Shown: positions 5,969 to 35,929, counted from the first letter of the stretch. The stretch: 37,504 nt of DNA from a virus (IMGVR_UViG_649989947_000021), one strand, 5' to 3'. A program made the numbers and translations. Notes: a model not told the origin generated them from the letters alone.

Positions 5969-5972
5969 GGGA

Positions 5973-6671: not shown

Positions 6672-6680
6672 CAGAGCCTC

Positions 6681-15202: not shown

Positions 15203-15215
15203 CCTGAACCAGGAA

Positions 15216-16724: not shown

Positions 16725-16936
16725 CAGAACCTCGCCAGCCGGTACCCGGGATGCCCCCGTCGTCGTGTAATCAGAGCCGCAAGGCGGCGCTCCCACTCCT
16801 GCCGTCCCTGCCGGATCTCAGATAAGTTTTCCATGGTCATCTGCTGACCATTAAAGGTGACGGATTTTCCGTCCAGCACCGCCATTTCAGCTTCCGTATA
16901 ACGCTGAATCATGGCTTCGATATCATTCTGGTTCAT
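16724..16936 (-). CDS. W: head-tail joining protein W-like
   Basis: 70-aa ORF ending ...ITRRRGHPGYRLARF, resembling lambda gpW; ATGA overlap with the terminase stop. Confidence 0.6.
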   Translation of the reverse strand: MNQNDIEAMIQRYTEAEMAVLDGKSVTFNGQQMTMENLSEIRQGRQEWERRLAALITRRRGHPGYRLARF

Positions 16937-21592: not shown

Positions 21593-21710
21593 AGCAACGC
21601 CTCCGCCAGTAACGGATTGCGTAGTTCTTATATTGGGAAGGGGAAAAAAGAAGGCCGCAGCGTAACTATCACTAATAAATTCAGGACAGCCAGTGGCTAC
21701 GGCTCAGTTT

Positions 21711-21840
21711 GGGTTGTGGCGGCCGGAATCGAACCGGCTTCCATCGGTGCGCTGCCGATTGCAGTACGCGCGGCGGTCAGCTATATGACTAGTATTTTCA
21801 CTATCGCCTATCTGCTAGCTCGCCATTGAGCTTCACCACA
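21711..21840 (-). other. tRNA-like element, probably a degenerate or interrupted tRNA (possible anticodon GCG)
   Basis: Minus strand: TGTGGTG (5' acceptor) AA GCTC-AATGGC-GAGC (D-arm-like), then about 55 nt, then ATCGG-CAGCGCA-CCGAT (5-bp stem, 7-nt loop), GGAA, GCCGG-TTCGATT-CCGGC (T-arm), CGCCACA (3' acceptor pairing with the 5' strand, one G-U), A, CCC; lacks U33 and has no encoded CCA. Confidence 0.3.
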
Positions 21841-22056
21841 ACGATAAGAGCACTGCGCGGCACCTTTCACCAATTCCGCGAGGTCTGCGGGTTCAATGCT
21901 CTTACCTGTTGTGCAGAAAAAAAACCACACGGCAGCGAGTTTAAGCTGTGTGGCGAAGTTACCTCTCTTCACCAAGTATTCGGTAATAAAATAACTTGTG
22001 GTGTTCTCGTTTTTATGCCGATAAAATAAACGGTCCACTTTCAAATGGAGCGATTC

Positions 22057-22560
22057 ATGATTTTTCTCAGAACTGAAAACGGCATCGAGAAACTTGAAAA
22101 CTGGGAGGAAATTATATCCAGACCAAACTTTGTCACCACTATAGACAAAGGAGTTCAACAACTTGAGGAGATAATTGGTTACTACAAATTTAAAGAAGAA
22201 ATCCACTGTGGTCTAACTGGTTGCAACCAACCACATCAAATGGGTTATATTGTAAAAACATCTAGTGGCATTGAAACCAACATCGGAAATAAATGTGGTA
22301 AAAACGAATTTGGTGTGGAATTTGGTGAAAACGTTCTTAGTTTCAATAAATTTATGCAACTCGAAACCAATCGGGAAATTATTAGCACCGCAAAAAGTAA
22401 ATGTGAAGCGTGGCAAAAAAATATTGAAACGATACGAAATATCAAACCCACAATAGATTATCTATCTTCTACCATCGAAAATAGTAAAAATTCCAATTAC
22501 TCCGGAAGACTTGGTGCTACAGAAATTCGTTTTTTGACCAAGAACCAGACAGGCCTTGTA
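22057..22560 (+). pseudogene. AT-rich accessory gene of unknown function, 5' part (interrupted by IS10)
   Basis: Plus-strand ORF MIFLRTENGIEKLENWEEIISRPNFVTTIDKG... with GGAG upstream of ATG 22057; reading frame runs into the IS10 inside end at 22561. Confidence 0.7.
22552..22560. repeat. 9-bp target site duplication (GGCCTTGTA), left copy
   Basis: Identical to 23890..23898, directly flanking the IS10 ends. Confidence 0.85.
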
Positions 22561-23889
22561 CTGAGAGATCCCCTCATAATTTCCCCAAAGCGTAACCATG
22601 TGTGAATAAATTTTGAGCTAGTAGGGTTGCAGCCACGAGTAAGTCTTCCCTTGTTATTGTGTAGCCAGAATGCCGCAAAACTTCCATGCCTAAGCGAACT
22701 GTTGAGAGTACGTTTCGATTTCTGACTGTGTTAGCCTGGAAGTGCTTGTCCCAACCTTGTTTCTGAGCATGAACGCCCGCAAGCCAACATGTTAGTTGAA
22801 GCATCAGGGCGATTAGCAGCATGATATCAAAACGCTCTGAGCTGCTCGTTCGGCTATGGCGTAGGCCTAGTCCGTAGGCAGGACTTTTCAAGTCTCGGAA
22901 GGTTTCTTCAATCTGCATTCGCTTCGAATAGATATTAACAAGTTGTTTGGGTGTTCGAATTTCAACAGGTAAGTTAGTTGCTAGAACCCATGGCTCCTTT
23001 GCCGACGCTGAGTAGATTTTAGGTGACGGGTGGTGACAATGAGTCCGTGTCGAGCGCTGATTTTTTCGGCCTTTAGAGCGAGATTTATACAATAGAATTT
23101 GGCATGAGATTGGATTGCTTTTAGTCAGCCTCTTATAGCCTAAAGTCTTTGAGTGACTAGATGACATATCATGTAAGTTGCTGATAGGTTTCCAGTTTTC
23201 CGCTCCTAGGTCTGCATATTGTACTTTTCCTCTTACTCGACTTAACCAGTACCAACCCAGCTTCTCAACGGATTTATACCATGGCACTTTAAAGCCAGCA
23301 TCACTGACAATGAGCGGTGTGGTGTTACTCGGTAGAATGCTCGCAAGGTCGGCTAGAAATTGGTCATGAGCTTTCTTTGAACATTGCTCTGAAAGCGGGA
23401 ACGCTTTCTCATAAAGAGTAACAGAACGACCGTGTAGTGCGACTGAAGCTCGCAATACCATAAGTCGTTTTTGCTCACGAATATCAGACCAGTCAACAAG
23501 TACAATGGGCATCGTATTGCCCGAACAGATAAAGCTAGCATGCCAACGGTATACAGCGAGTCGCTCTTTGTGGAGGTGACGATTACCTAACAATCGGTCG
23601 ATTCGTTTGATGTTATGTTTTGTTCTCGCTTTGGTTGGCAGGTTACGGCCAAGTTCGGTAAGAGTGAGAGTTTTACAGTCAAGTAATGCGTGGCAAGCCA
23701 ACGTTAAGCTGTTGAGTCGTTTTAAGTGTAATTCGGGGCAGAATTGGTAAAGAGAGTCGTGTAAAATATCGAGTTCGCACATCTTGTTGTCTGATTATTG
23801 ATTTTTCGCGAAACCATTTGATCATATGACAAGATGTGTATCCACCTTAACTTAATGATTTTTACCAAAATCATTAGGGGATTCATCAG
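22561..23889 (-). mobile_element. IS10 insertion sequence (IS4 family), 1329 bp
   Basis: Inside end CTGAGAGATCCCCTCATAATTTCCCC at 22561 and outside end (reverse complement) CTGATGAATCCCCTAATGATTTTGGTAAAAATCATTAAG ending at 23889; full 402-aa transposase; 9-bp flanking direct repeats. Confidence 0.95.
22574..23782 (-). CDS. tnp: IS10 transposase
   Basis: 402-aa ORF MCELDILHDSLYQFCPELHLKRLNSLTLACHALLDCKTLTLTELGRNLPTKARTKHNIKRIDRLLGN..., IS10 transposase by recall. Confidence 0.95.
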   Translation of the reverse strand: MCELDILHDSLYQFCPELHLKRLNSLTLACHALLDCKTLTLTELGRNLPTKARTKHNIKRIDRLLGNRHLHKERLAVYRWHASFICSGNTMPIVLVDWSDIREQKRLMVLRASVALHGRSVTLYEKAFPLSEQCSKKAHDQFLADLASILPSNTTPLIVSDAGFKVPWYKSVEKLGWYWLSRVRGKVQYADLGAENWKPISNLHDMSSSHSKTLGYKRLTKSNPISCQILLYKSRSKGRKNQRSTRTHCHHPSPKIYSASAKEPWVLATNLPVEIRTPKQLVNIYSKRMQIEETFRDLKSPAYGLGLRHSRTSSSERFDIMLLIALMLQLTCWLAGVHAQKQGWDKHFQANTVRNRNVLSTVRLGMEVLRHSGYTITREDLLVAATLLAQNLFTHGYALGKL

Positions 23890-23898
23890 GGCCTTGTA
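23890..23898. repeat. 9-bp target site duplication (GGCCTTGTA), right copy
   Basis: Identical to 22552..22560. Confidence 0.85.
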
Positions 23899-24315
23899 AC
23901 CCTTTCTGAAGTGGAAACTGATAAGAATACCAAAACAATTCTGTTCGCAATGAATGAACACATGCGCGAGTCTGGAGAGGCAATAAGTGAATTCTACATA
24001 GGAAAAGTATCATTTAGTCATGTTCTTTTACCAGAAAACAATCTTCGTGATTTTTTTGTTGCGCTCAAAGAAGATCTAAAAAAAATTCAGTGTATTGATC
24101 TACAAACAGCCCCAAGCCCAGAAATTTCTAATGTTGCCAAAATTGCCAGTTCAATCGAAGAACGAATCAAGCGATTAAAAAAACTGAAACATGAAGCCAG
24201 TAAATTCCTAACTAAAAAAAATCTGCGTCCCATCGCAAACAAAATAAAATACTCATCGACAGCGGATGAACTTGAATTCCATAATTTCGAACGCTTTTTA
24301 AAAGGGCTGAAATGA
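23899..24315 (+). pseudogene. AT-rich accessory gene of unknown function, 3' part (downstream of IS10)
   Basis: In-frame continuation after the second duplication copy (TLSEVETDKNTKTILFAMNEHMRESGEAISEFYIGK...FLKGLK, stop 24313..24315); joined to 22057..22560 it gives about 306 aa. Confidence 0.7.
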
Positions 24316-24335
24316 TAAAAGCCCCGAAAGGGGCT
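24311..24335 (-). terminator. hairpin terminator; candidate tR'-like terminator for the late leader and also the stop signal for the plus-strand accessory gene
   Basis: AGCCCC-GAAA-GGGGCT hairpin; on the minus strand it is followed by TTTTATCATT; lies about 100 nt downstream of the Q-like stop and 5 nt after the accessory gene stop. Confidence 0.5.
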
Positions 24336-24429
24336 TCTATCAAAATCATTTACGCATTATTCCGCATGCTTAAAAGAATACATGACAGATTCGGACAAAA
24401 TCAAGTGCAATGTCGCAAAAACCCTAAGC

Positions 24430-25260
24430 TTAGTTCACATCATCACCAAAACTTGTCACATTCTGAAAAGCAATATCGGCCTTACGCTCTTCCTGGTGGC
24501 AAATGTCAACCAGAGAATCAAGAAACGGCTTCCAATTACGCGTCCATGTCCTGACATGTAGCTCGGGTATCCGCTTCAGTACAACTTTATATACTGTGGT
24601 AGACGGTACCGTGGAAAATCCATTTCCGCTGCAACGTTCGCAGATTTTAAACACTGGCACACCACGCTCGCTTGTGGCTTTGCGGTCCAGTACCTCTCCC
24701 TTTCCACCACAACGACACCTGGCACTTATCACTCCCTTCCCTTTACATACATCGCAAACGACTGGTACAACTTCCGTTACCTCTGTCCATTTCTCCCAGT
24801 CTGACGGTCGAACAGCACGGGAGCGACTGGCCCAATATGGTGCTTTACCCCATGGGTATGAAACCTTACGAATGACCTGCTTACGGGGTGTTAGTCCGGT
24901 ACCACTGCAACTATGGCATGTTACGCTGGTGTCCGCCGATCGGGAATACTCAGCAAAAGCAAACTGCGCCAGTACCAGCATACACCAGCCAAATTCACCA
25001 CCAGCTGCTTTACGCACATTCTTCGGTGCAATTTCCATCGCGTGACGCGCCAGCGCTTGGACTGCCATCTGCTCATCAGTCTTGCTGATACCGGCCTTCC
25101 CGAAGAAGGCCGCCAAGCCAAACCGTTCACGATTGCTGGTGGTACCAATAGCCGCCATAACATCGGTGCCTGTAAGACGTTCCGGAGAGGTTCCTTTCAC
25201 ATCGTCGCCGATATACATTCCCTGAGGACTGAAGTATTTTAGCGATGCCTCAAGCTTCAT
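24430..25260 (-). CDS. putative late antiterminator Q-like protein (zinc-binding Cys clusters)
   Basis: 276-aa ORF directly upstream of the lysis cassette in late orientation; Cys motifs CHSCSGTG, CDVCKGKG, CRCGGKG, CERCSGNG; assignment by position and Cys motifs, not verified. Confidence 0.5.
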   Translation of the reverse strand: MKLEASLKYFSPQGMYIGDDVKGTSPERLTGTDVMAAIGTTSNRERFGLAAFFGKAGISKTDEQMAVQALARHAMEIAPKNVRKAAGGEFGWCMLVLAQFAFAEYSRSADTSVTCHSCSGTGLTPRKQVIRKVSYPWGKAPYWASRSRAVRPSDWEKWTEVTEVVPVVCDVCKGKGVISARCRCGGKGEVLDRKATSERGVPVFKICERCSGNGFSTVPSTTVYKVVLKRIPELHVRTWTRNWKPFLDSLVDICHQEERKADIAFQNVTSFGDDVN

Positions 25261-26117
25261 TATTCACACTCCCCAACCAGATTAAGAATAACCGCCGCGC
25301 CATTGTCTTTCATATATTCGCCCTTTCCGCTTGCCAAAAACCAACGACACACCTCCACTGCTTCAGCCCGTGTCACCGGTTTGATGGTCATCAGCAATTT
25401 TTCAAGGTAGCGCTCGCGGTCATATACCGATTCGTGATGCTCAGAGTAACCATACTCATCGCCCTGTTCTTTAGACGCAGTGTGGCGAACACTGTAGAGC
25501 CAGTCCCAGTAAACAAACTCACGAACTACGTCTGACAATGTATGAGGCTCTGGCAGTACATCACGATAGCCATCAACATATGCACGACGCTGATCATCAA
25601 TTTCATTCATACGGATGCCATCAATTCTGCCCGCTGTCTTCTCGGCTGCAGTCCAGCCCCAGAGATGATCGTCGATAAATTTCTGGGAAGACTTGATCAC
25701 TCGCTCGGCTTCCACATCTTCGAGTGCTGCTTCATAGCTACCAAACGTAGCCCTGACTGATGTTGCTTTTTTGATATTCTCCCGGGCGATCCTGATTGCC
25801 TGTGCCGGGTTATCCATGCCGATGGTACCGAAAGCAATCTGGAAAGGATCACCACCATTCGCCAGCAGATAACGCGAATAGCGTTCCTGGGCCTCTTTTG
25901 GGGAAATTTTAATTTTCACCAGCGCAGCCTCAGCAGCATCCAGATGTGCGGGTTCGTTCAGACGGATAACCTCCAGCACCCAAAGATAAGCATCAGTCTG
26001 CTTATGCCCGGTGATTCTCCGTTGCTCTGGCAGGGGCTTGATGTTTGCGAGGGCGGAGCTGTACGCTGCCGTCGGGATGGTGAATAGTGCTTTATGTTCG
26101 TTGTTATCAGTACGCAT
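25260..26117 (-). CDS. hypothetical protein (nin-region position)
   Basis: 285-aa ORF with stop/start overlaps to primase upstream and Q-like gene downstream. Confidence 0.5.
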   Translation of the reverse strand: MRTDNNEHKALFTIPTAAYSSALANIKPLPEQRRITGHKQTDAYLWVLEVIRLNEPAHLDAAEAALVKIKISPKEAQERYSRYLLANGGDPFQIAFGTIGMDNPAQAIRIARENIKKATSVRATFGSYEAALEDVEAERVIKSSQKFIDDHLWGWTAAEKTAGRIDGIRMNEIDDQRRAYVDGYRDVLPEPHTLSDVVREFVYWDWLYSVRHTASKEQGDEYGYSEHHESVYDRERYLEKLLMTIKPVTRAEAVEVCRWFLASGKGEYMKDNGAAVILNLVGECE

Positions 26118-27085
26118 TACGCAACCGCCTTTTTCTTATGGAAAACCAGCTCTCGAACCTGATCACCGTTCATGAGCATATTGTTGAAATCATCGTGATC
26201 CGGCCAGTACACGCTCACGCGCTGCAGGTCATTCTTTGCCATCAGATTGGCATGAGCACATTCGCAAGCCGCAGCCAGCCCGGTGGCGCTGTTCTCGTCA
26301 CGGTCGGCAAAAATAATCAGGTGCAGAACACCAGCTGGTACGCGGAACTTTTTCATAAAGCCGCTGTTAATGGTTGCCCAGGTGTTCACGTTATAAATCT
26401 GGTGCGCTGACAGCGCTGTTTCGATGCCTTCGGCGATACCCAGAGTGCTAGCAACAGGAAACATGCGGATAGCTACAGAACGAGCGTGATCCAAATAGTT
26501 ATCTTCCTGCAGGGATTTGAGGCGCTTTGCACTGCTACCGATATCTGCTTTTTTATCACCATCAAGCAGAGTCTGGTGCAGATAGCACAACTCCCCTTTA
26601 TCGTCCGTAGCAAGTGAATAAAGAGACTGGAACACACTCCCGTTGTGTCTCTGCCTGGCATTGAACCGGATCGCCTCAGCAGGAAGACTGAATATTCCAC
26701 GAGAATTAAGATACGCTGCGCCGGATGTACCACGCAGTGCCTCCAGTTTTGAAAACTTGCTCAATACCCGTTTGCGTAAGCTGGTGGCGCTGCTGGTTAC
26801 CGGGATTTTAACCCGTTGGTAATCATTACCGCTCAGGCGGTCTATTTCGGTACAAATCTCGTTAAATGGCTTCGCCTGTGTCAGGGTGACAAGTTTCATA
26901 CCATCGCCACTACCACATACACAGATCCACGTTCCTGCACCGTCGCGGTCATCAATTCGGAACTTGCCACGTGCACCGCATACCGGGCATTCACCCTTGA
27001 AGTGATTTTTTCCTGTTATCGGCGGCAAGCCGAAGTGCTCTAATATTTCAGGCCAGCGGCCTTTCGCTGCAGCTGCTGTTTTCAT
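26117..27085 (-). CDS. DNA primase (zinc-binding N-terminus plus Toprim domain)
   Basis: N-terminal CPVCGARGKFRIDDRDGAGTWICVCGSGDG zinc-finger-like motif; Toprim-like AEGIETALSA ... IIFADRDENSATG. Confidence 0.7.
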   Translation of the reverse strand: MKTAAAAKGRWPEILEHFGLPPITGKNHFKGECPVCGARGKFRIDDRDGAGTWICVCGSGDGMKLVTLTQAKPFNEICTEIDRLSGNDYQRVKIPVTSSATSLRKRVLSKFSKLEALRGTSGAAYLNSRGIFSLPAEAIRFNARQRHNGSVFQSLYSLATDDKGELCYLHQTLLDGDKKADIGSSAKRLKSLQEDNYLDHARSVAIRMFPVASTLGIAEGIETALSAHQIYNVNTWATINSGFMKKFRVPAGVLHLIIFADRDENSATGLAAACECAHANLMAKNDLQRVSVYWPDHDDFNNMLMNGDQVRELVFHKKKAVA

Positions 27086-27086
27086 C

Positions 27087-28745
27087 TTACTGACTCAAAC
27101 TGTTTATATTTTTCTGGAGTTGTTGCTTTGCTTGCATGATGCGCCAAGCCTCAGTGCCTATTGGCATCTCGCTTCGCTCACCTCGTTCCTGAGACAGAGG
27201 AATCGTTGCCTGCAATTTTTCTATAGTTCTCTGCGTCCGCTGACGGCCTTTGGCAAACCGAATCAGCTTGTGTTTGATGTAGTTACTTACTTCTGGGCTT
27301 ATTTCCATCGGGAAACTGCTCAACCCATCAGGCCATTCACCGAATTTCTCCCTGAAAGTGTGAGCACACCATCCATCACTGACTGGACGCCCCAGCGAAG
27401 CACGCTGGCGCTGATAAAATTTGATCTGACTCCACCAGGACTGTTTCTCTGCCTTCGTCGACTGATGCTGATTTTTACCCAGCTTATTAAGTTTGCGGCT
27501 AGTGTCAGTATCAACGTCTTCACCTCGCAGCGGCTTGTGTCCACATTTCGGGCAAACATAGACGCCAGCTGGCTTCATGTAGTGGCATTGAGGGCATTCA
27601 TGTGGCAGTTTTTCGGCCCGTTCCTCAACTGCGCGGCGCGCGCTTTCCTCCATGCCATCAGACTTACCGGGAAGATCGTCGTACTCGATTGAATCCGGAT
27701 AACCCAAACGGTGCACGGTGCCGCTGTGATCGAAGATAAGGCAGGACGCTTTACCCGGTGCGGTGCGCAGCCCACGCCCGAGTGCCTGCAACCAGCGAAT
27801 TTCGCTTTTTGTTGGCCTGGCGTAGATGATGCAACGAACGTCACTATCGAATCCGGCTACCAGAACGCCCACACTAACGATGATTTTCGTTGCACCGGTT
27901 TCAAAGCGGTGAATGATGGTCTGGCGCTCATCTACCGGAGTGTCGGCGGTCATTACCTCAGCGTTAACACCCGCCAAGTTAAACTGGATTGTCAGATAAT
28001 TGGCGTGAGCTACGTTGACGCAGAAAGCGATGGTAGGTAGATCCCGACCATTCTCCAGCCAGTTCTGTACGATGTCGCCCACCAGCGTAGAGCCGCACAT
28101 GATTTCAGCCAGCTGTGTTTCGTTGTAATCGCGGCCGTACTCAAGCGAAGATGTGGTTTTAACACCTTTCAGATCCGGCTTAGTTGGCGCGTAAAATTCG
28201 TATTTACTCAGATCGCCACGCTGGATTAACTCGCCGATGGTGGTCGGCTTAATCAGTCGGTCATAGTATTTGCCCAGGAACGGAGAAAACGGAGTACCCG
28301 ACAGGCCAATCACCTTTACGCCTTTGCCGCGCAGACGTTCGATATCCTTCAGGATGCGTTTTTTACGCAGGTGCGCTTCGTCGATAATCAGCAGATCGAT
28401 ATTTTCAGGAAAAACACGACGAATAAGCGTGTCAGCGCTGGCAATCTGAATTTTCCGGTCCGGATCGTAGTTCGGGTGATCCGCCCAGATATAACCGATT
28501 TCATCTCCAGGTAAACCATACTGCACGAACCGATTAGCCGTCTGACCAATCAGGATGGTGTACGGAACACAGAACAGAACACGCATACCACGGCTGACAA
28601 AACCAGCAACTATGAAGGCTGCCAGACCCGTTTTACCGCTACCTGTTGGCGAGTAAACCATGAAGGTGTCGTTTGCCTTCCAGTCACGGCGCAACATGTT
28701 TAGCGCTCGCTCCTGTGCAAAATTCGGCGTGATTGTCAGCTGCAT
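27087..28745 (-). CDS. superfamily 2 DEAD/DEAH-box helicase (replication helicase)
   Basis: Walker A VYSPTGSGKT, DEAH box LIIDEAH, helicase C-terminal motifs, C-terminal zinc ribbon CPQCHYMKPAGVYVCPKCGH. Confidence 0.8.
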   Translation of the reverse strand: MQLTITPNFAQERALNMLRRDWKANDTFMVYSPTGSGKTGLAAFIVAGFVSRGMRVLFCVPYTILIGQTANRFVQYGLPGDEIGYIWADHPNYDPDRKIQIASADTLIRRVFPENIDLLIIDEAHLRKKRILKDIERLRGKGVKVIGLSGTPFSPFLGKYYDRLIKPTTIGELIQRGDLSKYEFYAPTKPDLKGVKTTSSLEYGRDYNETQLAEIMCGSTLVGDIVQNWLENGRDLPTIAFCVNVAHANYLTIQFNLAGVNAEVMTADTPVDERQTIIHRFETGATKIIVSVGVLVAGFDSDVRCIIYARPTKSEIRWLQALGRGLRTAPGKASCLIFDHSGTVHRLGYPDSIEYDDLPGKSDGMEESARRAVEERAEKLPHECPQCHYMKPAGVYVCPKCGHKPLRGEDVDTDTSRKLNKLGKNQHQSTKAEKQSWWSQIKFYQRQRASLGRPVSDGWCAHTFREKFGEWPDGLSSFPMEISPEVSNYIKHKLIRFAKGRQRTQRTIEKLQATIPLSQERGERSEMPIGTEAWRIMQAKQQLQKNINSLSQ

Positions 28746-28795
28746 TGTGCTGTCCCCGCAGTGATGAGATAATAATTTTGTGATGTGGTTTTCAT
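28736..28795 (-). CDS. 19-codon upstream ORF overlapping the helicase start
   Basis: GAGGAGG then 5 nt then ATG at 28795; encodes MKTTSQNYYLITAGTAQCS; its stop overlaps the helicase ATG region. Confidence 0.3.
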   Translation of the reverse strand: MKTTSQNYYLITAGTAQCS

Positions 28796-28856
28796 GGATT
28801 CCTCCTCACATGGCTGGTGGTCTCCCCAAAGGCTGCCAGCCCCTTTCCGAATCAAC

Positions 28857-29225
28857 TCACTTAAATTTCGTCGCACGAATAACGTCAATTCCGTTCTCGC
28901 TATATCGAAGAGGGTGCTTACCATCCCTGAGCAGGACAAAGCCTGACATCCCCTCAGGTAGCTGAGCCAGCTTCATCAACGAACGGTTGCGGGGAGACTT
29001 CTTATCGACCTCAATGGCACACTGCTGGCCGTCTGATGATGTAACCAGGCAATCAATAAACCCTTTACGACCACCGCTAATGCTGATGCTGAAATTGCGT
29101 TGCAGATGGTATCCCTGAGACTTGATTTTTTTCTGCATCACATAATCGAAAACGACTTTGTCATCGGAGCGAATGAATTGCTCTTCCAGGAGAGTGATTA
29201 AATTTTGCTTCAGGTCTTCACTCAT
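28857..29225 (-). CDS. hypothetical protein, possible PD-(D/E)xK nuclease fold
   Basis: 122-aa ORF; motif GFIDCLV ... AIEVDKK resembles PD-(D/E)xK; weak assignment. Confidence 0.35.
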   Translation of the reverse strand: MSEDLKQNLITLLEEQFIRSDDKVVFDYVMQKKIKSQGYHLQRNFSISISGGRKGFIDCLVTSSDGQQCAIEVDKKSPRNRSLMKLAQLPEGMSGFVLLRDGKHPLRYSENGIDVIRATKFK

Positions 29226-29474
29226 ACTTTTTTATCCATCTTGTACTAGCTTTCTGGTACAGCCGTTTTTTCAGGGGTATCCCCCTTTAGATCGAGATCT
29301 ACCTAACCTATGTACCCGTCTGTTGGAAAAGCCTGTTCCAGTGCTTCGCACTAACACACGGGCACTCCTCCCCCTCCCCTCCTCTCATTGAATTTTGTGC
29401 GTACTCTTTAACTAGTACAAAAATGCAATGAGATTTGGGATTCAGCCACCGGACACCTTTAAGCCCGGTACCAA

Positions 29475-29768
29475 TCAGGAGCGCGATTGCGTTCCTGCCA
29501 GGGGCGGCTGAGTTGTATACCCCTGTAAAGCTCTGCCCTGATTTCTCACAAACAAGCGGAGCCTTGTGTTTGCTTCGTGCCTTGCTCTGTTCTCCTTGCG
29601 GAATGAAACAGGCTCAGCGTCAAAAGTGATTTCGTATACCTCCGCATATTTCAGGGCGACCTTCCGTCTCAGTGACGGAGGCAGCCCCTGTAACTGCTGC
29701 TGAATCCACTCTTCGTCTGCCTGGCAGTGCCTAGATGGCATCTCTGTCTGAACGTAATTCTGGGACAT
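29475..29768 (-). CDS. hypothetical protein in the cII position
   Basis: 97-aa ORF, 12 nt downstream of the cro-like stop, with GAAGGG ribosome-binding site; no similarity to lambda cII that I can see. Confidence 0.5.
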   Translation of the reverse strand: MSQNYVQTEMPSRHCQADEEWIQQQLQGLPPSLRRKVALKYAEVYEITFDAEPVSFRKENRARHEANTRLRLFVRNQGRALQGYTTQPPLAGTQSRS

Positions 29769-29780
29769 ACAAGCCCTTCA

Positions 29781-30053
29781 TCATTCGTTTTTCATAACTG
29801 CCGCATTTGTGGCTGTGTGACTTCTACGTAACAAATCAGGGATTGCATCTTCAGGATGGGGATAAAGATCTGGTCTTAACCCATGAGGAGTAACTTTCCA
29901 TTCCACAACTTCACATACACGCAAGACGAAACGAGCAGGAATTGTTCTTTTTGAAAACCATTGGTTCACAGCTTGCGGCGTAACGCCTAGATTTCGCGCT
30001 ATGGCATTTTGTGCAATTAGCTCACGAAGTGCGTCGTAATCATTTCCTTTCAT
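29781..30053 (-). CDS. cro: Cro-like HTH repressor (YdaS-like)
   Basis: 90-aa ORF MKGNDYDALRELIAQNAIARNLGVTPQAVNQWFSKRTIP... with helix-turn-helix; divergent from cI across an operator region. Confidence 0.7.
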   Translation of the reverse strand: MKGNDYDALRELIAQNAIARNLGVTPQAVNQWFSKRTIPARFVLRVCEVVEWKVTPHGLRPDLYPHPEDAIPDLLRRSHTATNAAVMKNE

Positions 30054-30187
30054 CGCAACCCACCAATCTAAACTTTATAAATTCAAGATTACATCAAGTT
30101 TAAATTAACATGCAAGTCCACAAAAGATCGAATACACTAAAATCAAGTAAAAATTTATCGAAACCAAGTAACCAGCAAGGATTAACA
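30054..30187. promoter_or_regulatory. OR-like region with divergent promoters and repeated AATCAAGT-type motifs
   Basis: Intergenic between cro-like (minus) and cI (plus); repeated CAAGT-containing motifs including the 13-mer AAATCAAGTAAAA at 30140..30152; candidate minus-strand promoter -35 TTGCAT (30115..30110), 16-bp spacer, -10 TGTAAT (30093..30088). Confidence 0.45.
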
Positions 30188-30877
30188 ATGAAAAACTTAA
30201 AGAGCACTGAAAATCGAATTACAAAGCTGCTACAGGAGAAAGGCTGGAGCCAAGCAGAGCTGGCCCGAAAATTAGGTGTCAGCGCACAGTCCGTACAGTA
30301 CTGGACAACAGGAAAAACATTTCCAAGGGGAAACCGGCTTGCCCAGTTATCCGAAATAAGTGGTTATCCGCAATCGTGGTTTTTAGGAGAAATCACGTCA
30401 CGGCAGTTCTCTTCAAAGGAAAAACATCAAGCAAGAACTGACAGTGTGGTCTTTAACGTGCTCGATGTTGAGTTTAGTTGCGGCGATGGAACACATGTCC
30501 GTGGGGACTTTATCGATGTAGTTCGCTCAATCGAGCTTGATCCTGAATATGCCCGTCGCCTTGTTGGCAATAGAGCATTTCAAAACATAGAGATTGGTAA
30601 CGCAAGAGGAGATAGTATGGCTCCAACAATAGCCCCAGGAGATCTTCTTTTTCTCGATAAAACAGTGAATTACTTTGATGGTGATGGCATTTATGCTTTT
30701 TGCTTTGATGGTGAATGCTACGTCAAAAGATTACAAAAGATAGGAAGTAAAATCATGGTGTTATCTGATAACCCAAATTACCAATCCTGGAGCATTGAAA
30801 AAGATGCTCTTGAGCTGCTTTATATCCAATCGAAGGTAATCTCATCTGTTCCATTCAATATAAATAGATTTGGTTAA
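30188..30877 (+). CDS. cI: CI-like repressor (HTH_XRE N-terminus plus S24 LexA-like autopeptidase C-terminus)
   Basis: HTH LLQEKGWSQAELARKLGVSAQSVQYW; C-terminal GDSMAPTI ... K motif; start set at ATG 30188 with AGGA upstream; an alternative upstream ATG at 30110 exists. Confidence 0.85.
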   Translation: MKNLKSTENRITKLLQEKGWSQAELARKLGVSAQSVQYWTTGKTFPRGNRLAQLSEISGYPQSWFLGEITSRQFSSKEKHQARTDSVVFNVLDVEFSCGDGTHVRGDFIDVVRSIELDPEYARRLVGNRAFQNIEIGNARGDSMAPTIAPGDLLFLDKTVNYFDGDGIYAFCFDGECYVKRLQKIGSKIMVLSDNPNYQSWSIEKDALELLYIQSKVISSVPFNINRFG

Positions 30878-30939
30878 TTATTGATTATTAAAGAAAAATT
30901 TACAAATCAAGTAAAAGAGACGCAGAAATCAATTTTTTC

Positions 30940-30969
30940 TTGACAACTCCATCAATCAAGATCTAACAT
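30940..30969 (+). promoter_or_regulatory. PL-like early-left promoter
   Basis: -35 TTGACA (30940..30945), 18-bp spacer, -10 TAACAT (30964..30969); flanked by AATCAAGT-type motifs including AAATCAAGTAAAA at 30904..30916. Confidence 0.45.
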
Positions 30970-31023
30970 CACACCATCAATTTTGACTTGATTTATTGTT
31001 AATTTTAAATTGATGGTGATTCA

Positions 31024-31452
31024 ATGAAAGATCTGACAACCGCTGAGATATCGAACTTAAACCACTTCGAAAAAGAATCCTTTGCATTAAATATTGCAAA
31101 TCTGGTAGGTGCTGCTCGTACTTTCCATTTAATTGATGGTGATCGCTCTAAAGAATTGGGGTTTGAAGTCATGGAGTTTGTTCATGAATACGCCCTGTCT
31201 GCTACTTATCCATTACATAATCACATAATCAACAAACAACCAAATAAAATCCGCACCCAACGCGAAGCCTGCGGCTTAACAACCGCCGAACTCGCCAGGC
31301 TGCTCGATCTCGATGAAGAAATTATCATCCAGTGGGAAAGCGGAGAGTACGAACCAACCATCAGCATGCTTATCCCTCTGGCTAATGTTCTTGGCTGTGA
31401 TCCAATGTTGTTATTGACTGATGCTTATAAACAAAATCAGGAGGAAGCATAA
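31024..31452 (+). CDS. first early-left gene: protein with C-terminal HTH_XRE domain and unknown N-terminal domain
   Basis: 142-aa ORF; C-terminal GLTTAELARLLDLDEEIIIQWESGEYEPTISMLIPLANVLGCDP is HTH_XRE-like; not N-like. Confidence 0.6.
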   Translation: MKDLTTAEISNLNHFEKESFALNIANLVGAARTFHLIDGDRSKELGFEVMEFVHEYALSATYPLHNHIINKQPNKIRTQREACGLTTAELARLLDLDEEIIIQWESGEYEPTISMLIPLANVLGCDPMLLLTDAYKQNQEEA

Positions 31453-31453
31453 G

Positions 31454-31645
31454 ATGAAAATGTTCAAAGGCCTTACCAACGAACCGGAGACAGCTTTTCA
31501 TCACATTGCCGTACTGCTTGAAGCGGGGTTAATCATTTCGGCTTCCGGTGATGAAGAATGTGATGAACTTTCGGATGATATCTTTTTACTGGCACAACAA
31601 TACGCCAAAAGCGCATGCGATGCATTTAAGGAGCAAAGAACATGA
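31454..31645 (+). CDS. small acidic protein
   Basis: 63-aa ORF MKMFKGLTNEPETAFHHIAVLLEAGLIISASGDEECDELSDD...; GGAGG upstream; starts 1 nt after the previous stop. Confidence 0.5.
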   Translation: MKMFKGLTNEPETAFHHIAVLLEAGLIISASGDEECDELSDDIFLLAQQYAKSACDAFKEQRT

Positions 31646-31833
31646 TAACTCCATTAAATATTCTTGAGGAAGTGGCGGCACAAATAAAAGAGAATACATC
31701 AATGCTTGAATTTATATTTAAGAATTCGCCCGACCAAGGAGAGACAGACGATTATTTATGCTGTCTCATTCGCTCCATGAATAAGACCTGTGAAATGGCT
31801 TACGAGTATATAGAAACACTACGCAACGAATAA
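31642..31833 (+). CDS. small acidic protein
   Basis: 63-aa ORF MITPLNILEEVAAQIKENTSMLEFIFKNSPDQGETDDYLCC...; ATGA overlap with the previous gene; AAGGAG upstream. Confidence 0.5.
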   Translation: MITPLNILEEVAAQIKENTSMLEFIFKNSPDQGETDDYLCCLIRSMNKTCEMAYEYIETLRNE

Positions 31834-32017
31834 AGAACACTCAGTAAAAAATCACACATAAAAACATGACGGCCTCTGGTCGTGGATTTCCACAACCAGA
31901 AAATAATGGTGATGCATGAAAAATAGAAACGCTTATAAAACCGCATTATTAATGGCTAATGCAGGATACTGGTCAGTTGCAATACTGTTTCTCAGAAAAG
32001 CATACGGGAAATAACAA

Positions 32018-32377
32018 ATGGCATGTACAACCATTTATAAAGATCGTCGCCGCATGGTAACAGCGGCACTCCGGCGGATGCAACGTAAAACAGGTAGTAA
32101 TCTGCTCGTCGTTGACCTCCCGGACGGAGAAATAACAACGATAGAAATAACTGAACAGTTCATGAACCAGTTGTTATTACGATTTGAGGGTCTTACCCGT
32201 GTTGAATATGGACGGACGGAAGGAGAAGCAACAATCCGTACCGCATACCAGAATGCCATCGGTATTAATCAACACACGGAATATCTCACTGAATCAGGGA
32301 AACTGATAGTGGACGGCCTTTTAAAAGAGGTTGTTGACTACGTAAAAGAGAAATATATCAGTGGAGGAATTAACTGA
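32018..32377 (+). CDS. hypothetical protein
   Basis: 119-aa ORF. Confidence 0.5.
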   Translation: MACTTIYKDRRRMVTAALRRMQRKTGSNLLVVDLPDGEITTIEITEQFMNQLLLRFEGLTRVEYGRTEGEATIRTAYQNAIGINQHTEYLTESGKLIVDGLLKEVVDYVKEKYISGGIN

Positions 32378-32586
32378 TGTCTGATTTATCCCCTCTTATA
32401 CACGAAAAAGTACAGATCATTATGACGATTGAAAATGGTCAGGTAATAAATACCCGTAAAGTTCACAATAACGAGATGATTGCCAGCATGGATACCTTCT
32501 TGTGGATAGCAAAGAAAGCGGGATATCAGGTAATCGCTCCTGATCTGGAGGAAATCGGTGACATTAACAGCAATACGAATTCCTGA
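32377..32586 (+). CDS. hypothetical small protein
   Basis: 69-aa ORF; start overlaps the previous stop; GGAGG upstream. Confidence 0.45.
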   Translation: MSDLSPLIHEKVQIIMTIENGQVINTRKVHNNEMIASMDTFLWIAKKAGYQVIAPDLEEIGDINSNTNS

Positions 32587-32779
32587 GTGGGTGCACCTGC
32601 AGGCGGTCCGTGTTCTCCGCCAGTTCAGAGCCAGACGAATTCATCCCTGTCGTATGCACGGCTCCGGAAACCTGAGTCTGAGGGTTAATCGCCGCTGGCG
32701 GCTGCTGTCCCGAGACGGCGGCCAGAACTGGGAAGTAATGAGCCATGAACGATACAGCAAAGTTAAGGACCGGAAATGA
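32558..32779 (+). CDS. HigB-like (RelE/ParE superfamily) toxin homolog, probably an N-terminally replaced remnant
   Basis: GTG start with GGAGG 7 nt upstream; IHPCRMHGSGNLSLRVNRRWRLLSRDGGQNWEVMSHERY resembles the HigB C-terminus (LHPLKGDREGYWSITVRANWRITFQFINGDAYILNYEDYH) by recall; homology lies in a GC-rich patch between two EcoRI sites. Confidence 0.4.
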   Translation: MTLTAIRIPEWVHLQAVRVLRQFRARRIHPCRMHGSGNLSLRVNRRWRLLSRDGGQNWEVMSHERYSKVKDRK

Positions 32780-32812
32780 ACAATAAACCTTCAAACCAAA
32801 AGGAGAGTATTG

Positions 32813-33391
32813 ATGATTAATTCAACCATTACCCCTGAACCTACATTAACAGGCATCCGTTTTGGTAATCGAATTATTGGTTATTCAACTGCGGTTCGCC
32901 AGATCGACAACGGTAACTATGACAAACGAATTCCGGACGGGCTCGATCTGATAGCTTGCATTATGGAAGGGATTGAAAGCGGCTGGTTTATGCCGTGTAT
33001 TGAAAAACAAATCATCCTATGGCGCTGGCTTGTTGTCGCCGTGTTCATTGCTGAGGAGCAGGAGAAGAACGGGACTGTCGATGTTCAGAATGACAAGGGC
33101 GGCGTAGATACAGCCGTTGTATACACAGGAAAACCCGGTTCAATCAGCATTTATCCATGGTCTGAGCGCTTCGCGCTCGCTAACCATATCGAGGCGGGCG
33201 CAATTGAAAAATACGGGCCTGACGTTGGCCAGCAGATGGCGCTGCGTATGTATCAGGACATGGTTGTAACTGACGAGAAATGCGGATTCAGGCTGTCAGC
33301 GATGGGCCGGGAGGGACTCAACATACTACATGACAGCTTCATTGAACTGATTCAGAAAGACGGTATGCCAGACATGCCGGTTATGCACTGA
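32813..33391 (+). CDS. hypothetical protein
   Basis: 192-aa ORF with GGAG 6 nt upstream of ATG 32813. Confidence 0.55.
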   Translation: MINSTITPEPTLTGIRFGNRIIGYSTAVRQIDNGNYDKRIPDGLDLIACIMEGIESGWFMPCIEKQIILWRWLVVAVFIAEEQEKNGTVDVQNDKGGVDTAVVYTGKPGSISIYPWSERFALANHIEAGAIEKYGPDVGQQMALRMYQDMVVTDEKCGFRLSAMGREGLNILHDSFIELIQKDGMPDMPVMH

Positions 33392-33402
33392 GGTGGACGA
33401 AA

Positions 33403-34149
33403 ATGAACATAGTAACGATCAATAACAAACAGCTTCCGGCAGTCGAATATCGCGGTCAGCGTGTTGTGACGCTGGCGATGATTGATGAAGTCCACCAGCG
33501 ACCGGAAGGAACAGCGCGTGCAGCATTCAACCGAAACCGTGAGCATTTCATCAGCGGTGTGGATTATGCCGAATTAGGTGCGGACGTAATACGTACGGAC
33601 CTCCCGGAAGGAACATTCTCTAAATTTGCACCATCAGGGATTGTACTTTTTGAATCAGGTTACCTGATGTTGACGAAGCCATTCAATGACGCCCTTGCCT
33701 GGCAGGTTCAGCGCGAACTGGTTAACAGCTACTTCCGCACTCGCACACCGCTAACGGAAATCGAGATGATCGCTGCGATAGCCGCCGACGCTGTTCGTCA
33801 ACAGAAGCGCCTGAATCATGTGGAAGAACAGCTCGAAACAGTCACAGAAGCGGTGGAAACCATCAAACGCGGAAATATGCGCGCCGGATATGTCGGTTAT
33901 CGCCAGGTGGTCGCCAAAAGCGGAATGACTGATGCTAAGTGCCGCAATCTGGTCAATGCCTACAGCATCCCAACCGATACGCACGAATTTATGACACCAG
34001 ATGGTCTTCTTTCGCGCCGGGCTATCGTGGAGCTGGAGCCATTCATGAAAGCATTTCATCAGATGATGTCAGAGGCAGAGCCACGTGGTACCCGCTGGTA
34101 TCACCCGAAGATGGGGCTGTTTCAGGTGATTGGTTGGGAGGGTAAATAA
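33403..34149 (+). CDS. ORF6N-domain protein (antirepressor-like)
   Basis: N-terminal AVEYRGQRVVTLAMIDEVHQRPEGTARAAFNRNREHFISGVDYAEL resembles the ORF6N/Bro-N-type domain by recall; GAGGTGG upstream. Confidence 0.5.
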   Translation: MNIVTINNKQLPAVEYRGQRVVTLAMIDEVHQRPEGTARAAFNRNREHFISGVDYAELGADVIRTDLPEGTFSKFAPSGIVLFESGYLMLTKPFNDALAWQVQRELVNSYFRTRTPLTEIEMIAAIAADAVRQQKRLNHVEEQLETVTEAVETIKRGNMRAGYVGYRQVVAKSGMTDAKCRNLVNAYSIPTDTHEFMTPDGLLSRRAIVELEPFMKAFHQMMSEAEPRGTRWYHPKMGLFQVIGWEGK

Positions 34150-34487
34150 TGTCACTCATTACACAAAATTTCCGCCTCAATGCGCTGGCAAATCAGTATG
34201 CGGCGGCACTGCACAACCACATATCCGCCACCAGCGGTGGTCATTTCCTGATTAATGTCAATGGGCAATCCATACGAGTAAACATCATCGGTGGGGTTAA
34301 AGGCATCAGGGACTTAATCGATGGTTATGCTCTGAAGGCTATCAAAGAAAATTACCCCCAATGGGAAGCCGTTGGTATTCAACTGTTAAGCAAATGCGTT
34401 CGTGGAAACGAGCTGACGCAAAGCGGCAAAGAAATCTGGCAGAGCATGGTCAACGACATGAGCGATACCGTTATGGGGAACATGTAA
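34149..34487 (+). CDS. hypothetical protein
   Basis: 112-aa ORF; TAATG overlap with the previous gene. Confidence 0.5.
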   Translation: MSLITQNFRLNALANQYAAALHNHISATSGGHFLINVNGQSIRVNIIGGVKGIRDLIDGYALKAIKENYPQWEAVGIQLLSKCVRGNELTQSGKEIWQSMVNDMSDTVMGNM

Positions 34488-34709
34488 ATGAAAATCCAAT
34501 ACCAGGACTATGGCGCCGTAGCGAACATCGTGATCACCAGTTCCTGCCTGACATTGCAAAAGCATAACCGCGTTGTTGATGCGGTGCTGTTTAATGTACA
34601 GGGGATCTCTGAAAACCGCAGCGGCTTTTTCTGGGTTAAGTCATCGTTGTCAGGAAAAACACGCGACATCCTGCGCGCCTACAAAATCGTACAGCGGGAG
34701 GCAAAGTGA
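34488..34709 (+). CDS. hypothetical protein
   Basis: 73-aa ORF starting right after the previous stop. Confidence 0.45.
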   Translation: MKIQYQDYGAVANIVITSSCLTLQKHNRVVDAVLFNVQGISENRSGFFWVKSSLSGKTRDILRAYKIVQREAK

Positions 34710-34804
34710 TGAAGTCATTCCTCCTGTCCATACTGTTTAGTCTGCTGCTGGCGTCCGTCGTTTTCGGTACGCTGATTGAATATAAATTTTTAATGAATTA
34801 CTGA
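34709..34804 (+). CDS. 31-aa hydrophobic single-helix micro-protein
   Basis: GGGAGG then 8 nt then ATG overlapping the previous stop (TGATG); encodes MKSFLLSILFSLLLASVVFGTLIEYKFLMNY; below the ORF-track size cutoff. Confidence 0.45.
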   Translation: MKSFLLSILFSLLLASVVFGTLIEYKFLMNY

Positions 34805-34812
34805 GGTGCGGG

Positions 34813-34968
34813 GTGGGCAAGATCAAAAACCCAGTTGTACTTATCCATAAGCGAGAAAATAGTGACTCCTACGCCGTTACAATCACCTGCGGTAGCCAGA
34901 ACTATCACGACGCCGTTCTGATGGCGTCGATGGAACTGGATATGAGTGACGATGATGTCGATACCTAG
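34813..34968 (+). CDS. possible 51-aa acidic small protein
   Basis: GTG start 5 nt after GAGG; MGKIKNPVVLIHKRENSDSYAVTITCGSQNYHDAVLMASMELDMSDDDVDT; fills the gap to the next gene. Confidence 0.3.
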   Translation: MGKIKNPVVLIHKRENSDSYAVTITCGSQNYHDAVLMASMELDMSDDDVDT

Positions 34969-34986
34969 AGTAAAACAGGCTATTAC

Positions 34987-35442
34987 ATGGCTGAAGAAAT
35001 CGAGCGACTGAAACAAGCACTTTCCGCTGCGGAAAATAATCTGATTGATTCCGAATGCCTCGTAGCTGAATTAAGCAAAGCAAAGGATCACGCATATGGG
35101 CTGGTCGACACATACGACTGGCAACGTCAGCGTCTCCACGCAGCCGCTGAGAAAGTCCTCAAATGGTGCAGACAAGAAGCTGAACACCGTACCGGCGATC
35201 CAGAGAAAGCAGAAAACTATGCGTGCGTTAAAGAACTACGCGACGCATTAACTTTTTGCAAAAGTTCTGAAAGCAGCAAGAAGAAAGGCCTGACTATCAC
35301 CCTGCCCGATATCACATCAAAGGCATTCTGGAGCGGTACCGGAAAAAACGCAAAATTCCATCCGGCAACCTATAAACGCTGGGTGAAAGAAGCTATTAAA
35401 CGGGATTGTGTTATTGCCGGGATCGGCGTGGAGGTGAAATGA
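34987..35442 (+). CDS. hypothetical protein
   Basis: 151-aa ORF MAEEIERLKQALSAAENNLIDSE... Confidence 0.55.
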   Translation: MAEEIERLKQALSAAENNLIDSECLVAELSKAKDHAYGLVDTYDWQRQRLHAAAEKVLKWCRQEAEHRTGDPEKAENYACVKELRDALTFCKSSESSKKKGLTITLPDITSKAFWSGTGKNAKFHPATYKRWVKEAIKRDCVIAGIGVEVK

Positions 35443-35525
35443 TGAATTGGCCTGAAGCATTCACCGCAGTAGGAGTTGCAATAGCGGTGGCATTTATTCT
35501 GTATTCGCTTTTCCGCTGGGGATAA
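35439..35525 (+). CDS. 28-aa hydrophobic micro-protein
   Basis: GGAGGTG then ATGATG overlapping the previous stop; encodes MMNWPEAFTAVGVAIAVAFILYSLFRWG. Confidence 0.4.
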   Translation: MMNWPEAFTAVGVAIAVAFILYSLFRWG

Positions 35526-35529
35526 AGGA

Positions 35530-35772
35530 ATGTTCGCTCTGATTCAACGTGGTCAGATATACACCGATAGTGCTGGCTACCCGATAAAAATTATTCGCTG
35601 CATAAACAACACTGTGTTGTACAGAAGAATGGATGGGCGAACACAGTCGGTAAAAATAAACGATTTTAATGAACTGTTTGAACGGATCGATCACCAGGAA
35701 TACCGACAAATTCTGGCAGAAACAGAGCAGGAAGCTCATCTGAAAAAATTACGAGCCATGAAAAGGAAGTAA
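35530..35772 (+). CDS. hypothetical protein
   Basis: 80-aa ORF with AAGGA upstream. Confidence 0.5.
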   Translation: MFALIQRGQIYTDSAGYPIKIIRCINNTVLYRRMDGRTQSVKINDFNELFERIDHQEYRQILAETEQEAHLKKLRAMKRK

Positions 35773-35775
35773 AGA

Positions 35776-35922
35776 ATGAATAAAGCATTTGAACGATGGG
35801 TCCACCAGCGTTACGGCAATCGCTATGACCTGACACGAGATGTTGACGGTTTCTACTGTCGTGAAATTGTGAAACGAATGTTTGAAGTGTGGTGCCACTG
35901 CCGTGGGCTGAGTGTTGTGTGA
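35776..35922 (+). CDS. 48-aa Cys-rich small protein (possible zinc-binding)
   Basis: AAGGAAG 6 nt upstream of ATG; MNKAFERWVHQRYGNRYDLTRDVDGFYCREIVKRMFEVWCHCRGLSVV. Confidence 0.35.
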   Translation: MNKAFERWVHQRYGNRYDLTRDVDGFYCREIVKRMFEVWCHCRGLSVV

Positions 35923-35929
35923 GGTTGGC

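Follow-up and report, generated by a model that had tools for sequence, protein, structure and literature searches.

Is the 73-codon open reading frame (ORF) at positions 32558 to 32779 (+) of the viral DNA IMGVR_UViG_649989947_000021 the debris of a bacterial toxin gene or a working phage gene? The initial annotation of the window (the whole stretch of 37,504 nucleotides), made from sequence alone, had described the ORF as the C-terminal part of a HigB-like toxin in a guanine-plus-cytosine (GC)-rich patch bounded by two EcoRI sites, most likely a recombined remnant, and had kept a functional orphan toxin-like protein as a fallback. The data favor the fallback, as judged from sequence comparisons. 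We give a probability of about 0.5 to the explanation as a whole, i.e., an intact gene encoding a miniature toxin-fold protein that would act on the ribosome or on mRNA. Its identity claims taken together (intact gene, superfamily fold, and solitary state) are very probably correct, and the ribosome- or mRNA-directed mechanism, taken separately, is a tentative proposal that leans toward being wrong.

An intact gene of the ParE_like family

The ORF starts with GTG, 6 nt downstream of a GGAGG Shine-Dalgarno sequence at 32547 to 32551 (+), just as first annotated, and its relatives have purine-rich counterparts of GGAGG ahead of their starts. The encoded protein matches the Pfam model PF24732 ("ParE-like toxin domain," ParE_like) with an E value of 9.9e-20 and 70.8 bits, versus a gathering cutoff of 24.4, and its residues 11 to 68 align with model positions 2 to 67 of 67. 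It also matches PHROG 1525, a family in the category "unknown function," with an E value of 3e-27 (residues 2 to 72 on model positions 4 to 74 of 75). The protein is therefore a full-length member of both families, with no differences from either. No NCBIfam model matched the ORF or its neighbors.

A search of 5.8 billion clustered proteins found 67 close relatives, nearly all of 72 to 73 amino acids, several of which are named "ParE family toxin-like protein," among them an Escherichia coli protein with 99% identity. When 1.84 billion representatives were searched exhaustively with a profile, 115 clusters (at 50% identity) were found with E values of ≤1e-3, almost all of 67 to 85 amino acids, and all 48 diverse relatives tested match the PF24732 model. 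Since 73 amino acids is the usual length in this family, there is no truncation. The N-terminal motif M-x-L-T-A-I-R-I-P-E-W (residues 1 to 11) is kept across the close family, which fixes the start at 32558, and the family signature (P9, A16, [W/Y]47-R48-L-L, W58, H63, and Y66) is complete in the window protein. Start calls in RefSeq are inconsistent: some genomes have 62 amino acids from a GTG at 32591, which is 11 codons too late, and others have 73; in further RefSeq genomes the gene is left out, and the GenBank record of the Stx2f phage phi467 has no coding sequence at the corresponding positions (26604 to 26825). The correct start to annotate is the GTG at 32558.

The remnant favored at first, or an ORF that arose by chance in GC-rich sequence, could be argued from the length of the protein (73 amino acids versus 92 to 100 for HigB or ParE), from a mosaic boundary at the start codon, and from the missing annotation in phi467. 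However, the protein matches the family models along their whole length, the length is uniform in the 115 representatives, the N terminus is conserved, and the structure prediction is compact and confident (see below). The ratio of nonsynonymous to synonymous substitution rates (dN/dS) is 0.055 (Nei-Gojobori method, 2008 gene pairs). Relatives might have shown the segment as part of a longer, unrelated gene, but the same gene of 72 to 73 codons is met in them across many different contexts. We consider a remnant or chance ORF hardly credible. By all these comparisons, the ORF is an intact, stand-alone gene under purifying selection, of a family already catalogued in Pfam, PHROG, and RefSeq.

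The features that had made the segment look like an insert have other readings. The GC content of the ORF (0.554, and 0.598 in its core) does stand out locally from the two preceding genes (0.40 and 0.44), but the window mean is 0.505 (standard deviation, 0.064) and 22% of 222-nt windows are equally or more GC rich, and part of the high value comes from 14 arginine codons. The composition is thus distinctive only locally and unremarkable across the window, and we discarded it as a sign of foreign insertion. Regarding the restriction sites, GAATTC at 32577 to 32582 and CTGCAG between the two EcoRI sites (32597 to 32602) are where they had been placed, and the second GAATTC lies at 32637 to 32642, one base from the position first given. 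Their role as a boundary clue did not survive, nor did a junction or engineering signature: both GAATTC sites in the ORF, like a third at 32928, arise from a CGA-ATT codon pair (Arg-Ile) with C as the next base, and the window has 8 GAATTC sites versus 12.3 ± 3.4 expected from shuffled sequences, so that there is no enrichment. In a set of 77 distinct homologous genes, 68 have the first EcoRI site, 21 have the second, and 48 have the PstI site, as in natural polymorphic coding sequence. An antisense ORF (32564 to 32794, −) is open in only 36 of these 77 variants and, not being conserved, was rejected as a gene.

Fold, conserved residues, and relationship to HigB and ParE

The AlphaFold2 model, built from a 34-sequence alignment, has a mean predicted local distance difference test (pLDDT) score of 87.5 and a predicted template modeling (TM) score of 0.72. 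The predicted order of elements is b1-a1-b2-b3-b4-a2, with a strand at residues 2 to 5, a helix at 10 to 24, strands at 39 to 42, 47 to 51, and 57 to 62, and a helix at 63 to 71. In the comparison of folds, the figures were 6.4 for Thermus thermophilus RelE, 5.9 for E. coli HigB, 5.8 for PrpT, 5.7 for Mycobacterium tuberculosis HigB1, 5.5 for YoeB, 5.4 for Proteus vulgaris HigB, 5.3 for YafQ, 5.0 for ParE1, and 4.9 for ParE2. The top ranks of a Foldseek search belonged to the same superfamily (YoeB, GraT, YafQ, and RelK), with TM scores of about 0.5, and independent BFVD models for proteins of Yersinia phage fHe-Yen9-04 and Klebsiella phage RaK2 that belong distantly to the family (17 to 30% identity) superpose at TM scores of 0.75 to 0.9. 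The predicted structure has the arrangement that defines the RelE/ParE superfamily, N-terminal helices on a three- to four-stranded antiparallel sheet, and on this model the protein is a miniature member of the RelE/HigB/ParE toxin superfamily. The N-terminal strand, the three-stranded sheet, and the short C-terminal helix are predicted to be retained, and a single helix replaces the usual two-helix hairpin. The N terminus is indeed shorter than that of HigB, as the initial annotation had noted, and the gap in the hhalign alignment to HigB falls exactly at the second HigB helix.

At the sequence level, the resemblance to HigB that had been proposed holds for the superfamily and not for the family. 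The suggested profile search gave no match of the window protein to PF05015 (HigB-like_toxin) at an E value of ≤1, and PF24732 was the model that matched; similarly, no match was found to PF05016 (ParE_toxin) at this threshold. Only 1 of the 48 relatives matches PF05015 (E value of 0.031), and 1 of 48 weakly matches PF05016 (E value of 0.042). When a profile of the 48 members was compared with the PDB sequences, P. vulgaris HigB was second, with an E value of 1.2 (residues 27 to 67 on HigB residues 52 to 92). For hhalign, the HigB and Caulobacter ParE1 sequences were checked against the PDB and a family alignment was built from each; the probability was 45% for HigB (P = 2.2e-4 over 25 columns) and 0.1% for ParE1, with 1.3% for the control comparison of HigB with ParE1. 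By sequence, the family is, if anything, nearer to HigB than to canonical ParE, a link at the level of the superfamily and not of family membership. Single-sequence matches in the PDB were limited to Ycf48, a chance BNR/Asp-box-like similarity through the segment SRDGGQNWE, and were discarded.

Among the characterized toxins tested, the best sequence relative is HigB of the P. vulgaris Rts1 HigBA system (PF05015), a ribosome-dependent A-site mRNA endonuclease. Both proteins have the motif hP..G..lSl.V...WR in strands b2 and b3, but the window protein is about 20 residues shorter and has one N-terminal helix versus two in HigB. The genetic setting differs too, since HigB is encoded in an autoregulated two-gene operon with a downstream helix-turn-helix (HTH) antitoxin, HigA, whereas the gene studied here sits in a phage early-operon context and is followed by a PHROG 1515 gene. 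Likewise, there is no upstream gene for a ribbon-helix-helix protein of the ParD type in the window, as would be expected for ParDE (PF05016; ParE is a gyrase poison), and the window protein keeps polar residues of nuclease type, without profile-profile signal to the relatives of Caulobacter ParE1. Sequence comparison thus indicates that the protein is a member of neither the HigB nor the ParE family: the profiles do not match, the partner genes are missing, and part of the catalytic residues is lacking.

Only A16 and R48 are invariant in the 48 diverse members; conservation is at least 92% for H63 and Y66 (94% for Y66) and at least 70% for P9, L20, V43, L49, W58, L60, and M61; position 47 is W or Y in 42 of the 48. 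The conserved polar set is thus R48, H63, and Y66. The catalytic set of HigB comprises His54, Arg73, Asp90, Tyr91, and His92, in which the scissile phosphate is touched by Arg73, the general acid is proposed to be Tyr91, and His54 serves as general base (PMC5027501). The HMMER alignment pairs R48 with Arg73, Y66 with Tyr91, and H29 with His54, and it is this alignment, not distances in the model, that suggests a clustering of R48, H63, and Y66 in space. The protein is also strongly basic, with an isoelectric point (pI) of 11.9 and a net charge of +12. YoeB and YafQ share the pattern of an arginine on strand b3 and a His/Tyr pair near the C terminus, and to our knowledge ParE toxins have no such Arg/His/Tyr residues. 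Because the pattern is that of YoeB and YafQ and not of ParE, and because of the strong basicity, an activity directed at RNA or the ribosome would be favored, and by analogy the window protein most plausibly works like a nuclease of the HigB/YoeB type.

The names given to the family, "ParE-like" in Pfam and "ParE family toxin-like" as the product in the Prokaryotic Genome Annotation Pipeline, suggest instead a gyrase poison of the ParE type, used early to arrest host replication or supercoiling, and the single weak PF05016 match among the 48 members agrees with it. This alternative seems quite unlikely, considering that the hhalign probability to the ParE1 family is negligible next to that for HigB, that the window protein itself does not match PF05016, that the RNase-type proteins RelE, HigB, YoeB, YafQ, and GraT head both fold searches, and that the family keeps the nuclease residues of the RelE type.

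A gene-sized cassette without a constant partner

Megablast comparisons found homology to Aeromonas phage AsXd-1 (93%), to the phages CharmingMan and LMessi (84%), and to many IMG/VR contigs, which starts at 32557 to 32567 and stops at 32779 to 32788, with flanks that are unrelated or far more diverged. These edges delimit a gene-sized mosaic cassette at 32557 to 32788. The junction suspected at the start of the segment is therefore real and lies at the start codon, but it leaves the gene undamaged; as read from these alignments, the 222-bp gene is exchanged as a separate cassette, by the ordinary gene-boundary mosaicism of temperate phages. AsXd-1 (MH178096, Aeromonas), EKP1 (OM284015, Elizabethkingia), and a locus of Chryseobacterium sp. 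18061 (L107) carry the gene in HK97-like contexts of enterobacterial type. The encoded proteins are 73 to 96% identical to that of E. coli, a surprisingly high similarity for such hosts, for which an error in host assignment or contamination is possible.

We took a census of the neighbors in 133 loci, complemented by reciprocal searches of a phage collection and by seven distant contexts. The upstream neighbor belongs to at least three families (PHROG 340-like in 74 loci, PHROG 1737-like in 37, and others in the rest) and the downstream neighbor to at least five (PHROG 1886 in 44, PHROG 1001 in 25, PHROG 1515 in 18, a family of 103 amino acids in 15, and others in the rest). In the window, a PHROG 1737 gene (32018 to 32377, +; 119 amino acids) is followed by a PHROG 340 gene (32377 to 32586, +; 69 amino acids), which directly precedes the ParE-like gene, and downstream of the latter is the PHROG 1515 gene (32810 to 33391, +), coding for an acidic protein of 193 amino acids. 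PHROG 1515 adjoins the ParE-like gene here because a PHROG 1886 gene is missing: the window lacks, at 32785 to 32791, the gene of about 400 bp (about 140 amino acids) present in AsXd-1 (locus L002, 2722 to 3104) and CharmingMan (locus L003, 2732 to 3111). In the 44 loci with PHROG 1886, this gene comes directly after the ParE-like gene, and the two overlap at ATGA.

These neighbors raise the alternative of a two- or three-gene toxin-antitoxin (TA) module, with the PHROG 340 and/or the PHROG 1737 protein as antitoxin or regulator, similarly to the PaaR2-PaaA2-ParE2 system of an E. coli O157:H7 prophage. The Paa system has three components, in the gene order paaR2-paaA2-parE2. The PHROG 340 protein is small and acidic (pI 4.8), whereas the toxin-like protein is basic, and the 3′ end of its gene shares 29 nt with the 5′ end of the ParE-like ORF, an overlap with the upstream gene that recurs in 91 of the 133 loci. 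However, the overlap arises because any upstream gene reads on until it meets its first stop, a TGA within the conserved I-P-E codons of the cassette, and unrelated upstream proteins all terminate in SDTNS. PHROG 340 is not found within 3 kb in 56 of the 133 loci, and 24 of the 32 phage records that have it, mostly Stx1a and Stx2a phages, are without the ParE-like gene.

PHROG 1737 is the most persistent neighbor, and 80 of the 86 close loci have it at a distance of at most 3 kb. Its pairwise divergences correlate with those of the ParE-like gene (rho of 0.73), and of the 20 phage records that contain PHROG 1737, 17 have the ParE-like gene as well. Nevertheless, only 3 of the 11 distant genomic loci have PHROG 1737 (8 do not), and it is missing in 49 of the 66 phage records with the ParE-like gene, while Fels-1 (with PHROG 1737 and PHROG 340) and Fostie (with PHROG 1737) do not have the latter. 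The alleles are also uncoupled, since between the window and AsXd-1 the ParE-like protein is 95% identical and the PHROG 1737 protein 46%. Neither upstream protein has a Pfam domain and thus, by this search, no DNA-binding, HTH, or antitoxin domain, which, together with the lack of codistribution, sets the two genes apart from paaR2 and paaA2. The PHROG 1515 protein has no HTH either, in agreement with the initial statement that no HTH antitoxin is adjacent. No PADLOC match was found for the ORF or its neighbors at an E value of ≤0.1, except for a chance-level hit to Csx20 for the downstream gene. We consider a TA module improbable, slightly more so than a gyrase poison.

PHROG 340, 1737, 1886, and 1515 were each rejected as cognate antitoxin for their lack of codistribution. 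More generally, a coinherited, adjacent antitoxin gene, the hallmark of type II TA systems, was not found in the 133 loci, the seven distant contexts, or the phage collection; the distant contexts are arrays of small, unannotated, same-strand genes without an adjacent antitoxin-type Pfam domain. Signs of an RNA antitoxin (type I or III), namely tandem repeats, a regional Rfam family, or a minus-strand promoter-like site near the gene, were not found either. A family distributed without a constant neighbor is unlikely to be a toxin that depends on a specific antidote, and, on the evidence of these gene contexts, the orphan toxin-like state is a family-wide property and not an accident of this locus.

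The family is also found in Sortsnevirus phages, Serratia phages, Klebsiella prophages, and phage genomes of about 95 kb in the phage collection, and in PLSDB it occurs on "plasmids" of 25 to 44 kb that are probably phage genomes. Klebsiella phage RaK2, a virulent jumbo phage, carries a PF24732 member as well. In Xenorhabdus (loci L122 to L128), distant members lie between genes of about 195 and about 440 amino acids at several chromosomal sites per genome, which suggests a different mobile element, possibly similar to an integrative and conjugative element, rather than the early operon of a prophage. The ParE_like domain is also found in natural fusions (P0136, of 226 amino acids; P0150 and P0162, of 198; and P0126, of 147; locus L146), whose N-terminal domains of 80 to 160 amino acids have no Pfam or PHROG match. 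Since P0150 and P0162 share the N-terminal domain, this fusion looks genuine, and such domains could be a clue to function or could neutralize the toxin-like domain in cis.

Prophage setting and proposed role

The window is 99.6% identical to phi467 at 23890 to 35925, and within this region the ParE-like gene belongs to an array of same-strand genes that begins with a CI/LexA-like repressor gene, continues with ORF6N antirepressor-like genes and other small genes, and extends to the integrase. It is well supported that the array is an accessory gene set of phi467/HK97-like temperate phages, of which the ParE-like gene is one exchangeable cassette. An ORF6N antirepressor-like gene is at 33403 to 34149, and the array of Fostie has a Lar-like restriction-alleviation gene (locus L142, 3509 to 3769); the array fits a pool of host-interaction and antidefense genes.

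The repressor gene (30188 to 30877, +) codes for an HTH domain and an S24 peptidase; its start is the one that RefSeq gives for a near-identical prophage. Past it, in an AT-rich gap of 146 nt, consensus matches delimit a putative control region (30904 to 31011, +) with two promoter-like sites: TTGACA-18-TAACAT at 30940 to 30969 (+; 10 of 12 consensus matches) and TTGACT-17-TAAATT at 30983 to 31011 (+). An operator-like 13-mer, AAATCAAGTAAAA, is repeated at 30904 to 30916, inverted at 30982 to 30994, where it overlaps a −35 element, and at 30140 to 30152, upstream of the repressor gene; related ATCAAGT copies are at 30093 and 30163. From their sequence and placement, the AAATCAAGTAAAA and ATCAAGT repeats look like candidate shared operators for the CI-like repressor, with sharing of the OL/OR type. 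A search for terminator-like sites on the plus strand found none before 34567.

The array would then be transcribed from the promoter just past the repressor gene, with operator-like repeats shared with the region upstream of the repressor. Since shared operators imply an array repressed in the lysogen and expressed early, the ParE-like gene would be off in the lysogen and turned on early upon induction or infection, like the PL operon of lambda, so that no antitoxin would be needed, as for other host-directed early phage proteins. Once made, the protein might dock through its basic surface on the translating ribosome or on mRNA, and the mRNA would be cleaved or blocked. Catalysis would involve the invariant Arg48 (HigB Arg73) and the C-terminal pair of His63 and Tyr66 (the latter equivalent to HigB Tyr91). 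As an outcome, host translation may be damped or phage gene expression reshaped, in a manner comparable to T4 RegB.

RegB is an early, phage-encoded endoribonuclease without a known antitoxin, with a fold related to RelE/YoeB, that acts on mRNA at ribosome-binding sites (PMC3014915). It seems the best functional analogy for an antitoxin-free phage protein with a RelE fold, although it has no sequence relationship to the window protein, is larger (153 amino acids), has an extra N-terminal helix and two catalytic histidines, and belongs to a virulent phage and not to a prophage accessory operon.

The toxin fold may also have been put to a nontoxic use, as an inert RNA-, DNA-, or protein-binding factor such as a regulator of phage expression or an antidefense decoy that engages host antitoxins or ribosome-associated defense proteins. 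The solitary state across the family, also in nonlambdoid phages, the incomplete HigB catalytic set, the fusions to other domains, the Lar-like gene in the accessory operon of a relative, and the extreme charge are all compatible with such a factor. On the other hand, the conserved positions are the Arg/His/Tyr expected of an active site rather than of a binding surface, and the data point to no partner or target that could be named. We consider this use unlikely, though less so than a gyrase poison or a TA module.

Several observations weigh against a ribosome- or mRNA-directed toxin-fold protein made early and without antitoxin. The Foldseek E values are above 0.1 and thus not significant, and the sequence link to HigB (E value of 1.2 and HH probability of 45%) is below the usual significance. 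With the second helix, the protein has lost a surface used by RelE-type toxins, and therefore ribosome binding is not assured. Regarding catalysis, H29, the equivalent of His54, is present in the window protein but variable across the family, and Asp90 and His92 of HigB have no equivalents (R65 and S67 instead); a different conserved histidine, H63, is nearby. The fusions P0136, P0150, and P0162 hint that the domain may act as a module and not as a free toxin, and the persistence of PHROG 1737 in the close lineage may reflect a functional link to the ParE-like gene. The promoter and operator assignments are consensus matches only, and read-through from the repressor gene is possible in lysogens, in which case a toxic protein would require neutralization. 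Finally, we found no publication that mentions PF24732, the literature on orphan toxins and ParE-like toxins held nothing on this family, and relatives in Serratia phages have been labeled "HigB-like" on HHpred evidence only (PMC7556043).

Outside the array, the window is a sharp modular mosaic of two phage types. Its early, regulatory, and replication half (23890 to 35925) is phi467-like, and the morphogenesis half (1 to 20414) has almost no DNA similarity to phi467, with the only exception of 5890 to 6674 at 92%. Between them is a complete IS10 of 1,329 bp (22561 to 23889), with a gene for a 402-amino-acid transposase (22574 to 23782, −) and the Rfam RNA-OUT at 23775 to 23844 (98.8 bits). 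Compared to phi467, its insertion left a 9-bp target duplication (phi467 positions 17935 to 17943) and split a plus-strand ORF into 22045 to 22605 and 23911 to 24315. The stx2f, tRNA-Gly, and tRNA-Thr genes of phi467 are missing here (21631 to 21917 of the window, compared with phi467 positions 14796 to 17301), and the stx region has no counterpart; ARAGORN found no tRNA in the window.

For this window, the main gain is a corrected annotation, in which the ParE-like gene is not to be taken for a pseudogene, a cloning scar, or an addiction module. Beyond the window, it illustrates well how a toxin-fold protein can be carried by phages with no antitoxin. Extended to the whole of PF24732, sequence comparisons could be read, doubtfully, as pointing to a widespread group of antitoxin-free phage ribonucleases or ribosome binders, miniatures of the RelE/HigB type, deployed early for host shutoff, for the timing of phage gene expression, or for countering host defenses, with a one-helix minimal toxin fold that may have evolved for partner-free work in temperate as well as nonlambdoid phages (Sortsnevirus and RaK2-like jumbo phages). 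Should the members turn out to be active nucleases, the family would be a second, RegB-like class of early phage mRNA endonucleases, and its scaffold of about 70 amino acids would offer a way to define the minimal requirements of the RelE fold.

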